Source of the DNA: Candidatus Kaiserbacteria bacterium RIFCSPHIGHO2_02_FULL_49_34
GTDB lineage: Bacteria; Patescibacteriota; Minisyncoccia; Phycocordibacterales; UBA918
DNA: 64,000 nt
NCBI GenBank assembly: GCA_001781205.1
Contig: MFLE01000025.1
Location: forward strand, 22,914 to 86,913
Direction: 5' to 3'
Shown here: piece after piece, positions 18,401-19,291 of the stretch
Position numbering within the stretch: the stretch's first letter is position 1
Layout of the letters: the number at the start of each line of letters is the position of its first letter
Notes under the pieces: generated by a model
Database searches by the model: none
What the model saw: the letters and a program-made list of their open reading frames with translations, nothing else
What the model was told of the DNA's origin: nothing
Made by a program: the position numbers and the translations under genes

Positions 18401-19291
18401 ATGCAAAAAACAGTGATTGTAAAACTAAAGGGCGGCATGGGGAATCAAATGTTTCAGTATGCATTTTCACGCGCGCTTATCGCTGCTGCAAAAAAGCACG
18501 GTGAAGCAATTTCTGTAGAGTACGACATCACTGGTTACGGCGAGCATGGTCGAGTAAAAAAGGATACACTCCGCACCTTTGACTTACAAAAACTCTCCTG
18601 CGAAATTGTCATCGCTGATGAATACGTCGCGCTCGCTGCACGAAATCCTTTCGGAGTTATTTCAAAAATCATCCGTCGTATTATCACCAAGTTTTTTACA
18701 CCCGACACCGTGCGCTATGACGAAACACTTCTCATGCCACCGTATAAAAATTACTACGAAGGCTACTGGCAATCAGAAAAATATTTCAAAAATATTGAAC
18801 AAGAAATTCGTCAACACTTTACTTTCCGCGAGCCTCTCGGCCCTGTCGCACAAGCCATGAAGGAGAAAATTGAGAACGACCCACACGCCGTCGGCATTTT
18901 CTTCCGTCGCACCGACTATGTCGGACACAGCGACCTTGACGTCTGCGACGACACCTACTACTCACGCGCCCTCGCAAAAATGCGCGAACTCGTCCCGAAT
19001 ATGCACCTCTACGTCATGAGCGACGACATCGAATGGGTCAAGCAAAACGGAAACCTTCCCGAAGGCACAACCTACGTCTCCTCCCCTTCCATCAGCTACA
19101 TCGAAGAAATGGAAATCTCCACCGCATGCAAACACCACATCATCCCCAACTCAACCTTCGCCTGGTGGGGTGCCTGGCTTAATACAAATCCAGATAAAAT
19201 CAGTATTGCACCAAAGCTCTGGTCCAAGAAAACAAACACCACCTGGTACAAAGACATAATCCCCAAAACCAAAAACTGGCTCCGTGCCTAA
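18401..19291 (+). CDS. alpha-1,2-fucosyltransferase (GT11 family)
   Basis: Start at MQKTVIVKLKGGMGNQMFQYAFSRALI. The LKGG(M/L)GNQMFQYA motif is the hallmark N-terminal signature of GT11 alpha-1,2-fucosyltransferases (FutC/WbsJ-like). The longer 18140 start would run through the manC terminator. Confidence 0.8.
   Translation: MQKTVIVKLKGGMGNQMFQYAFSRALIAAAKKHGEAISVEYDITGYGEHGRVKKDTLRTFDLQKLSCEIVIADEYVALAARNPFGVISKIIRRIITKFFTPDTVRYDETLLMPPYKNYYEGYWQSEKYFKNIEQEIRQHFTFREPLGPVAQAMKEKIENDPHAVGIFFRRTDYVGHSDLDVCDDTYYSRALAKMRELVPNMHLYVMSDDIEWVKQNGNLPEGTTYVSSPSISYIEEMEISTACKHHIIPNSTFAWWGAWLNTNPDKISIAPKLWSKKTNTTWYKDIIPKTKNWLRA

Follow-up and report, generated by a model that had tools for sequence, protein, structure and literature searches.

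GT10 and GT11 fucosyltransferase genes in a putative surface-glycan locus of a groundwater Candidatus Kaiserbacteria genome

The stretch of DNA analysed here, called the window in the following, comprises 64,000 nucleotides of contig MFLE01000025.1 from Candidatus Kaiserbacteria bacterium RIFCSPHIGHO2_02_FULL_49_34 and contains two fucosyltransferase genes, one belonging to glycosyltransferase (GT) family GT11 and the other to family GT10. Judged from their sequences, both genes are real and look functional. They probably encode GDP-L-fucose-dependent, inverting fucosyltransferases with a GT-B fold, and the best explanation of the data as a whole, which we consider likely, is that both enzymes fucosylate one surface glycan that is typical of the lineage. 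Within this explanation it is also likely that the glycan does not reproduce a Lewis or blood-group structure of animals. An earlier reading of the same DNA, made from the sequence only, had proposed a Lewis-y-like or blood-group-like epitope; such a product is neither shown nor likely, and the appealing interpretation as host mimicry is corrected here as unsupported. Taken singly, either gene is a readily recognised fucosyltransferase gene of an ordinary kind, and the finding is a modest one. Moderately interesting by-products are a conserved fucosylation module, a putative new GT-B family and a clade of GT11 proteins with an altered motif.

The assignment of the two proteins to their families by the sequence-only reading stood, with matches that chance does not explain. 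The GT11 protein matches the Pfam family Glyco_transf_11 (PF01531) over its full length (E 5.2e-30, 105.2 bits with a cutoff of 23.9, profile positions 2-286 of 298). The N-terminal motif GGxGNQ[ML]FQYA is intact (KGGMGNQMFQYAF, residues 10-22; residues 9-22 read LKGGMGNQMFQYAF) and aligns with that of 19 other GT11 proteins, and the C-terminal motif NS[ST][FY]xWW[GA]AWL is intact as well (PNSTFAWWGAWL). The central motif, in contrast, is not HxRRxD but F167-F-R-R-T-D172-Y (FFRRTDY). It therefore carries Phe in place of His and Thr in place of Gly (RRTD instead of RRGD), whereas the Arg-Arg-x-Asp core is retained.

This exchange is shared by a whole clade of proteins, referred to here as Phe-type. 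In an alignment of 32 sequences, the members of which are 47-79% identical to the GT11 protein of the window, F167 and 44 other columns are invariant; R169 and D172 of the core R169-R170-T-D172 are likewise invariant within the clade, and Phe-type GT11 proteins appear to be under purifying selection. Phe is found in 43 of the 120 best clusters at 90% identity, including all of the 42 closest ones. At 50% identity the clade collapses into one single cluster (P0016) in a library of 1.84 billion representatives, and the next 147 nearest representatives carry His in 135 cases and Phe in none. The 19 other GT11 proteins from the loci aligned in this study all possess His. The Phe-type clade is a natural test case for what the His residue of HxRRxD contributes.

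The replacement might mean that the chemistry of the enzyme is altered, be it by the use of another GDP-sugar donor, by the formation of another linkage or by a non-catalytic role. The restriction of Phe to one 50%-identity cluster would fit such a change, as would the additional Thr for Gly. However, the Arg-Arg-x-Asp core is intact, and its first Arg is the residue that has been reported as critical in HxRRxD (PMC4202792). The other two motifs are intact too, the gene has a constant place at the end of a cassette for GDP-L-fucose synthesis, the protein is strongly conserved, and its predicted fold matches that of fucosyltransferases. We therefore regard an altered chemistry as improbable.

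A sequence search with the GT11 protein against the PDB gave no match at E ≤ 0.01, and there is no GT11 structure in the copy of this database that was searched. A structural model calculated with AlphaFold2 (AF2) from 32 clade members reached a predicted local distance difference test score (pLDDT) of 90.4 and a predicted template modelling score (pTM) of 0.90. The top 14 matches of this model in a Foldseek search of the PDB are all fucosyltransferases (NodZ, POFUT1/2, FUT8, AtFUT1), with a best E of 1.1e-7 and TM-scores of only about 0.36-0.50. According to the model, the GT11 protein is thus predicted to possess the GT-B fold of the GDP-fucose transferase superfamily. It resembles WbsJ of E. 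coli O128, WbwK of E. coli O86 and FutC of H. pylori in its full-length PF01531 domain, its N- and C-terminal motifs, its RRxD core and the lack of a DxD motif (PMC4202792), but differs from GT11 enzymes of this type, with which it was compared by motif, in the clade-invariant Phe. The label alpha-1,2, which the sequence-only reading had given to the GT11 gene, does not hold as it stands. The linkage is not readable from family membership because GT11 also includes an alpha-1,3 enzyme, Hh0072 of H. hepaticus, of the same CAZy family as the window's protein (PMC4202792).

The GT10 protein contains FAIAFENSSRSGYTTEKILTAFAANALPIYYGDP and exhibits two Pfam domains, FucT_N (PF18025: 1e-25, 90.4 bits, cutoff 27.2) and Glyco_transf_10 (PF00852: 4.6e-18, 65.9 bits, cutoff 23.9). 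It matches the H. pylori fucosyltransferase FucT/FutA (2NZW, 5ZOI) at E of about 2e-37 (1.9e-37 for 2NZW), with the same architecture of an FucT_N and a GT10 C-terminal domain. All six residues checked are identical, with E65, R145, N190, Y196, E199 and K200 corresponding to E95, R195, N240, Y246, E249 and K250 of the H. pylori enzyme. We take Glu95 to be the catalytic base of this enzyme and the five other residues to be those that bind GDP-fucose. The motif FxxxFENSxxxxYxTEK is present, and E65 is the Glu of YTGEN. Among 40 GT10 homologues, E65, R145, N190 and Y196 show no variation at all, and E199 and K200 hardly any. In the crystal structure of the H. pylori enzyme, Glu95 is located near the reaction centre (PMC4202792). 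Besides these similarities there are also some differences: the match to H. pylori FucT is confined to two stretches, the window's protein has no visible C-terminal heptad repeats but a short, basic and hydrophobic tail, and its gene adjoins, with an overlap of 4 bases, a gene for a GT-D glycosyltransferase. Of the key residues named by the sequence-only reading, GT10 possesses those of its own family, while GT11 has kept Arg-Arg-x-Asp and has Phe167 in place of the His of HxRRxD. Both proteins are additions to known families and had already been deposited as hypothetical proteins.

The gap between the two genes amounts to 17,071 bp, in agreement with the spacing of about 17 kb given before. 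That both lie in one locus is correct insofar as they share one glycan region of about 33 kb (13.4-46.3 kb of the window), which appears to be a surface-glycan locus of the type found in this lineage. Within this region, however, they belong to two modules that are separated by a terminator-like hairpin and a block of CDP-sugar genes on the minus strand.

For a comparison with other genomes, one genome of each GTDB species was searched with a profile built from 40 GT10 homologues, and at least 470 stretches encode relatives. The best 80 of these, ranked by similarity and not drawn at random, were compared with flanks of up to 10 kb (25 loci from Patescibacteria and 55 from other bacteria), and GT11 was sought in them with a hidden Markov model (HMM) built from GT11 homologues. 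A GT11 gene is present within 10 kb of GT10 in 18 of the 25 Patescibacteria loci. Four of the seven loci without GT11 are situated on contigs that end near GT10, and the proportion rises to 18 of 21 if these are excluded. Among the 55 other loci (Bacteroidales, Lachnospiraceae and others) only one, from a Desulfosporosinus metagenome-assembled genome (MAG), contains a clear GT11 near GT10. An insensitive profile was considered as the cause of this low number, but a search at E ≤ 1 together with a regular expression for the motif gave just four very weak matches and no clear GT11. The pairing of both families had been called uncommon outside host-mimicking bacteria; this is true in the sense that it is rare in the non-Patescibacteria sampled, but in Patescibacteria it is the rule. 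Since the pairing is normal for the Patescibacteria module, it is no sign of host mimicry.

Three further genes accompany GT10 in the Patescibacteria loci and in none of the 55 others. GT-D is present in 21 of the 25 loci, mostly directly upstream of GT10, a GT-B glycosyltransferase-like protein that lacks any Pfam domain in 15, downstream of GT10 and usually directly, and a DUF268 protein in 10. The canonical gene order is RfbF and RfbG (minus strand), RfbH-like, Wzx, GT2, GT2, GT-D, GT10, Pfam-less GT-B, DUF268, GT11 and GT2, as exemplified by the complete Wolfebacteria genome CP011209 (L012), and the order GT10-(GT-B)-(DUF268)-GT11-GT2 was found in 13 loci. A more far-reaching interpretation, quite possible but put forward here as tentative, is that a subset of Patescibacteria (Kaiserbacteria, Wolfebacteria, Taylorbacteria, Paceibacteria, Falkowbacteria and others) shares a lineage-specific, ordered module for a conserved surface oligosaccharide that would bear two fucoses and possibly an O-methyl group. 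If this is true, the module would stand for a common glycan of ultra-small episymbionts, which might act in the attachment to or the recognition of the host. The literature searched contains no report of fucosyltransferases, GDP-fucose or this module in Patescibacteria or the Candidate Phyla Radiation (CPR), and the mention of fucose that was found in a CPR paper refers to the cell wall of the host and not to a glycan of the symbiont. The module could therefore serve as a starting point for the question what episymbionts display on their surface, and it includes an as yet unrecognised glycosyltransferase family and a DUF268 methyltransferase-like protein.

All GT11 proteins encoded within the canonical GT10 block carry His. 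In the window, the stop codon of DUF268 (39031) abuts the start of the following GT2 gene (39033), so that the slot for GT11 is empty, and the Phe-type gene in the cassette is the only GT11 gene of the 64 kb. In a Kaiserbacteria relative with 82% identity, a gene for an NYN-domain protein occupies the slot between DUF268 and GT2 (L175, 12641-13177; L176, 9577-10113), and gene turnover appears to take place at this slot. The in-block, His-type GT11 gene has apparently been lost here as well as in the 82%-identical relative. A relocation of this gene from the block to the cassette was ruled out, as the cassette copy belongs to the Phe-type clade, shares only 33-40% identity with the in-block proteins and has a conserved context of its own. 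With such a low identity, the Phe-type protein is not an orthologue of the in-block GT11 proteins. If the tentative interpretation of the module is true, the clade with Phe in place of His would functionally replace the in-module enzyme.

The genomic context of the Phe-type clade was analysed in 11 loci with flanks of 10 kb, three of which are near-identical to one another. The manC gene is located directly upstream of GT11 in 10 of the 11 loci (the remaining one ends at the contig edge), and the full set gmd-fcl-manC is present in eight. Genes for a NUDIX hydrolase and for Wzx often follow downstream; the NUDIX gene 3' of GT11 occurs in loci L091-L094, too. The cassette gmd-fcl-manC-GT11-NUDIX is thus conserved wherever the Phe-type GT11 clade occurs. 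This context supports only the putative donor of the GT11 enzyme. A similar clustering of Gmd, Fcl, ManC, a Gmm-like NUDIX hydrolase and a glycosyltransferase is known from the colanic-acid type cassette of E. coli, where the gene order is gmd-fcl-gmm-wcaI-manC. The window differs from this in the gene order, in the presence of GT11 instead of the GT4-type WcaI, and in a DUF3800-like insertion. Complete GDP-fucose synthesis, together with a conserved fucosylation module of several genes, has been kept in a subset of Patescibacteria whose genomes are very small.

None of the 11 Phe-type loci contains GT10 within 10 kb. It is conceivable that the window encodes two separate glycans, one fucosylated by the Phe-type GT11 of the cassette and the other built by the GT10 block, in which case no di-fucosylated epitope would exist. 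In line with this, the cassette is usually followed by a Wzx gene of its own, the closest relative (79% identity) runs on into different glycosyltransferase genes (GT87 and GT2), and a terminator-like hairpin and a minus-strand block lie between the modules in the window; the low identity of the Phe-type protein to the in-block GT11 proteins fits as well. On the other hand, there is only a single Wzx and a single initiating transferase in the whole region of about 33 kb, and GT10 also depends on the GDP-fucose made by the cassette. Moreover, the canonical module pairs GT10 with GT11, and with the in-block copy lost, the cassette copy is the sole GT11 that remains in the window. Two separate glycans seem somewhat unlikely to us. 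A shared product of GT10 and GT11 is favoured because of the one Wzx, the one initiating transferase and the apparent loss of the in-block GT11 copy.

Several points nevertheless weigh against a single, doubly fucosylated glycan. Donor, acceptor and linkage are putative. The GT11 of the window is not more than 33-40% identical to the enzymes with which GT10 is otherwise paired, and its canonical His is replaced. The Phe-type cassette stands elsewhere apart from GT10, with its own Wzx downstream, and may serve a different glycan. The 80 loci compared represent the top of the similarity ranking among at least 470 stretches, and the search for a polymerase (Wzy), a ligase and a second GT11 covered 64 kb of the genome.

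For the single glycan that we consider likely, the following pathway can be proposed. GDP-fucose would be supplied by ManC, Gmd and Fcl, the genes for which lie directly upstream of GT11. The initiating transferase of the Bac_transf family would start a lipid-linked (polyprenyl-phosphate) oligosaccharide, and about eight glycosyltransferases, among them GT4, GT2, GT-D and GT-B enzymes, would extend it. GT10 would add a fucose, probably in alpha-1,3/4 linkage to a GlcNAc- or Glc-type residue, and GT11 another one, probably alpha-1,2-linked to a residue of the Gal type, for which GalE would provide UDP-Gal. The product would also carry a CDP-derived deoxyhexose and might be O-methylated by DUF268. 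After flipping of the oligosaccharide by Wzx, an enzyme encoded elsewhere would probably transfer the glycan to a protein, lipid or wall acceptor, since the window contains no polymerase or ligase and a Wzy_C protein with tetratricopeptide repeats (TPR) is present in related loci.

The same genes could in principle also be read in terms of a Lewis-y-like or blood-group-like epitope on an acceptor of the N-acetyllactosamine (LacNAc) type, as in the molecular mimicry of H. pylori. Both families that H. pylori uses for Lewis y are indeed present and intact, and GalE together with several uncharacterised GT2 enzymes could provide a Gal-GlcNAc acceptor. However, the organism is an aquifer member of the Patescibacteria and not animal-associated, and the contig has also turned up in metagenomes from aquifers and groundwater. 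Cultivated Patescibacteria are reported to live attached to other microbes (PMC11623550). A LacNAc synthase is not recognisable: the four GT2 proteins, the GT-D, the GT4 and the Pfam-less GT-B match no specific galactosyltransferase model of NCBIfam. Instead, the CDP-deoxyhexose pathway, the methyltransferase, the GT-D and the four GT2 enzymes point to a more complex, non-Lewis glycan. The two fut genes are also devoid of tracts for phase variation, with no runs of six or more C or G and just one run of seven A near the 3' end of GT10, and the linkage formed by a GT11 enzyme, as discussed above, does not follow from its family. A Lewis-type epitope is accordingly very improbable.

Two of the accompanying proteins deserve a closer look. 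The Pfam-less GT-B protein has no match in Pfam or NCBIfam. Among 5.8 billion proteins, about 202 are homologous to it; their annotation is 'hypothetical' throughout, and every homologue with a named lineage originates from Patescibacteria. Its AF2 model has a pLDDT of 94.9, and the Foldseek search against the PDB retrieved GT4-like GT-B enzymes, namely the glucosyltransferase 8xsh, SenB and MshA (best E 1.9e-9). E203 and E211 are invariant among the homologues. On the basis of the model, the most fitting reading of the protein is that of a compact glycosyltransferase not recognised so far, and it is this reading that brings the module to a total of about eight transferases. The DUF268 protein may be a glycan O-methyltransferase, perhaps acting on fucose. 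DUF268 has been described as an uncharacterised family of glycosylation gene clusters ("glycoclusters") in C. elegans (PMC7614267), and this was the only record of DUF268 in the glycan literature searched. The DUF268 gene recurs beside fucosyltransferase genes, not only in the GT10 module but also near the Phe-type GT11 cassette (L099-L101, L147). The GT-D protein is assigned to TIGR03728 with 296.5 bits (cutoff 290.75), whereas NCBIfam holds no model matching the GT10, GT11, DUF268 or Wzx proteins. The coordinates of all features are compiled in Table 1.

Table 1. Features of the glycan region (positions refer to the window)
Feature	Position	Strand	Basis and remarks
gmd, GDP-mannose 4,6-dehydratase	13465..14625	+	First gene of the cassette; Pfam GDP_Man_Dehyd 3e-127; NCBIfam TIGR01472 467 bits (cutoff 415)
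fcl, GDP-L-fucose synthase	14675..15619	+	Pfam Epimerase 1.9e-63; NCBIfam GDPFucSynFcl 453 bits, below cutoff of 500
manC, bifunctional mannose-1-phosphate guanylyltransferase / mannose-6-phosphate isomerase	16966..18330	+	Pfam NTP_transferase and MannoseP_isomer; NCBIfam TIGR01479 380 bits (cutoff 373)
Terminator-like structure (G+C hairpin, then T-run) in the manC-GT11 spacer	18348..18368	+	Consensus scan; pattern match only
GT11 fucosyltransferase, Phe-type, OGG61116.1 (A3C87_03120)	18401..19291	+	296 amino acids, ATG start; Pfam PF01531
DUF3800-like gene(s), insertion between GT11 and NUDIX	19459..20214	-	Pfam DUF3800 0.0016, below cutoff; G+C content 0.35
NUDIX hydrolase, Gmm-like (GDP-mannose mannosyl hydrolase)	20539..21000	+	Usual last gene of the cassette; Pfam NUDIX 3e-15; NCBIfam PRK15434 61 bits, below cutoff
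CDP-hexose modification block: short-chain dehydrogenase/reductase (SDR) family reductase, acetolactate-synthase-like thiamine diphosphate (ThDP) enzyme, class I aminotransferase, RfbF, RfbG	22547..28343	-	Pfam, NCBIfam
RfbH-like DegT-family enzyme, RmlC-like epimerase, SDR	28496..31264	+	Pfam
Wzx-type flippase	31356..32651	+	Pfam Polysacc_synt 2.9e-23; 10 hydrophobic segments
Three GT2 (32731-33645, 33660-34631, 34628-35461)	32731..35461	+	Pfam Glycos_transf_2; syntenic across Patescibacteria loci
GT-D (DUF1792 / SP_1767 family) glycosyltransferase	35445..36365	+	Pfam GT-D 4.6e-81; overlaps GT10 start
GT10 fucosyltransferase, OGG61135.1 (A3C87_03215)	36362..37423	+	353 amino acids; Pfam FucT_N and Glyco_transf_10
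Compact putative GT-B glycosyltransferase, no Pfam domain	37434..38309	+	Fold match; EX7E-like E203...E211
DUF268-family S-adenosylmethionine (SAM) methyltransferase-like protein	38306..39031	+	Pfam DUF268 7.3e-15, Methyltransf_11 0.0027
GT2	39033..39791	+	Pfam 4.9e-37; directly after DUF268 here, after His-type GT11 in canonical loci
GalE, UDP-glucose 4-epimerase	40811..41869	-	NCBIfam TIGR01179 336 bits (cutoff 262)
GT4 glycosyltransferase	43678..44841	-	Pfam Glycos_transf_1 5.8e-40
Initiating polyprenyl-phosphate glycosylphosphotransferase (PGT)	44857..46293	+	Pfam Bac_transf 2.6e-52; 5 hydrophobic segments

With an initiating PGT, Wzx, nucleotide-sugar genes, a run of glycosyltransferase genes and a lowered G+C content, the region resembles loci for Wzx/Wzy-dependent O-antigens or capsules. 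The G+C content of the glycosyltransferase block is 0.40-0.45, with GT10 being lowest at 0.40, compared to about 0.51 in the housekeeping genes. The initiating PGT matches TIGR03025 with 295.6 bits, which is barely above the cutoff of 295.55. In contrast to the O-antigen and capsule loci, there is no Wzy, Wzz or ligase in the 64 kb, and the gene order is conserved across distant lineages of Patescibacteria instead of being hypervariable. Wzx and the initiating PGT are the only polytopic proteins of the cluster; no further open reading frame (ORF) codes for three or more hydrophobic segments, and no candidate for Wzy or a ligase was found among the polytopic ORFs of the window. In other genomes, genes for Wzy_C proteins (O-antigen ligase/PglL-like) of about 730-790 amino acids adjoin the GT10 module or the Phe-type cassette (L012, 2545-4911; L023, 317-2536; L093, 1067-3280; L094, 4054-6243), and those of L023, L093 and L094 are fused to TPR. 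These Wzy_C proteins of related loci might carry out the transfer or polymerisation step for which the window encodes no enzyme.

Between the two modules, positions 22547-29704 code on both strands for a CDP-glucose pathway with RfbF, RfbG and an RfbH-like protein, together with the acetolactate-synthase-like ThDP enzyme, the class I aminotransferase and the SDR. NCBIfam recognises two of the enzymes (G1P_cyt_trans 371 bits, cutoff 300; CDP_4_6_dhtase 439 bits, cutoff 278), while the matches to RfbH (350 bits, cutoff 423) and rmlC (146 bits, cutoff 156) stay below the cutoff. This combination suggests that the bacterium, despite its reduced genome, makes an unusual CDP-sugar, either a 3,6-dideoxy or a branched-chain (yersiniose-like) one.

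Some smaller features were observed in the cassette itself. In the annotation of the metagenome contig, an antisense ORF of 307 amino acids (14618-15541, minus strand) takes the place of fcl, and public annotations of the contig lack fcl because the gene caller chose this ORF. The spacer between fcl and manC contains a direct repeat of 56 nt (15688-15743 and 16372-16427), the copies of which are 96% identical and 684 bp apart, and each copy immediately precedes the end at which a small ORF on the minus strand, with no assigned role, has its stop codon. In the segment from 18348 to 18400, a TGnTATCAT element is found 7 nt 5' of the ATG of GT11 and no Shine-Dalgarno sequence is evident; GT11 may have a transcript of its own, with almost no leader. 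The DUF3800-like gene downstream is apparently split into ORFs of 63 and 180 amino acids. It is absent from the 79%-identical relative, where NUDIX directly follows GT11.

The glycan region also harbours a gene for an S41 protease and, at 40065-40778 on the minus strand, one for a kinase of the zeta-toxin family, which is adjacent to an ORF of 60 amino acids (approximately 39876-40058, as called in the metagenome). Both the zeta-toxin gene and its small neighbour are kept in the 82%-identical relative (L175/L176); they could be a toxin-antitoxin pair or represent a nucleotide-sugar kinase.

The source of the window is a groundwater Candidatus Kaiserbacteria genome. The deposited lineage of the MAG that encodes the GT10 and GT11 proteins is Candidatus Kaiserbacteria of the Parcubacteria group within the Patescibacteria group (CPR). 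The window is 100% identical to a contig of 211,764 bp from an aquifer metagenome (ENA ERZ4903055, k141_867211) and nearly identical to the aquifer scaffolds JGI 3300002502 and ANAN16-1. In ANAN16-1 the DegT and SDR genes appear broken owing to an insertion of 10 bp and a short stretch that does not align with the window; this was set aside as a difference of assembly or strain.

The surroundings of the region consist of ordinary chromosomal genes such as fusA, prfB, ligA and nusB, those for a penicillin-binding protein (PBP), SMC and RNase III, and pilin-like genes. The Rfam scan of the window revealed two tRNAs only; neither riboswitches nor rRNAs were detected. An ORF of 719 amino acids (10350-12509, minus strand) immediately upstream of the glycan region gave no match in Pfam, and no membrane segments are predicted for it. 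On the other side, two genes for type IV pilin-like proteins with an N-terminal methylation motif are located at 57204-58406 (minus strand), and these proteins are possible acceptors if the glycan serves protein glycosylation.

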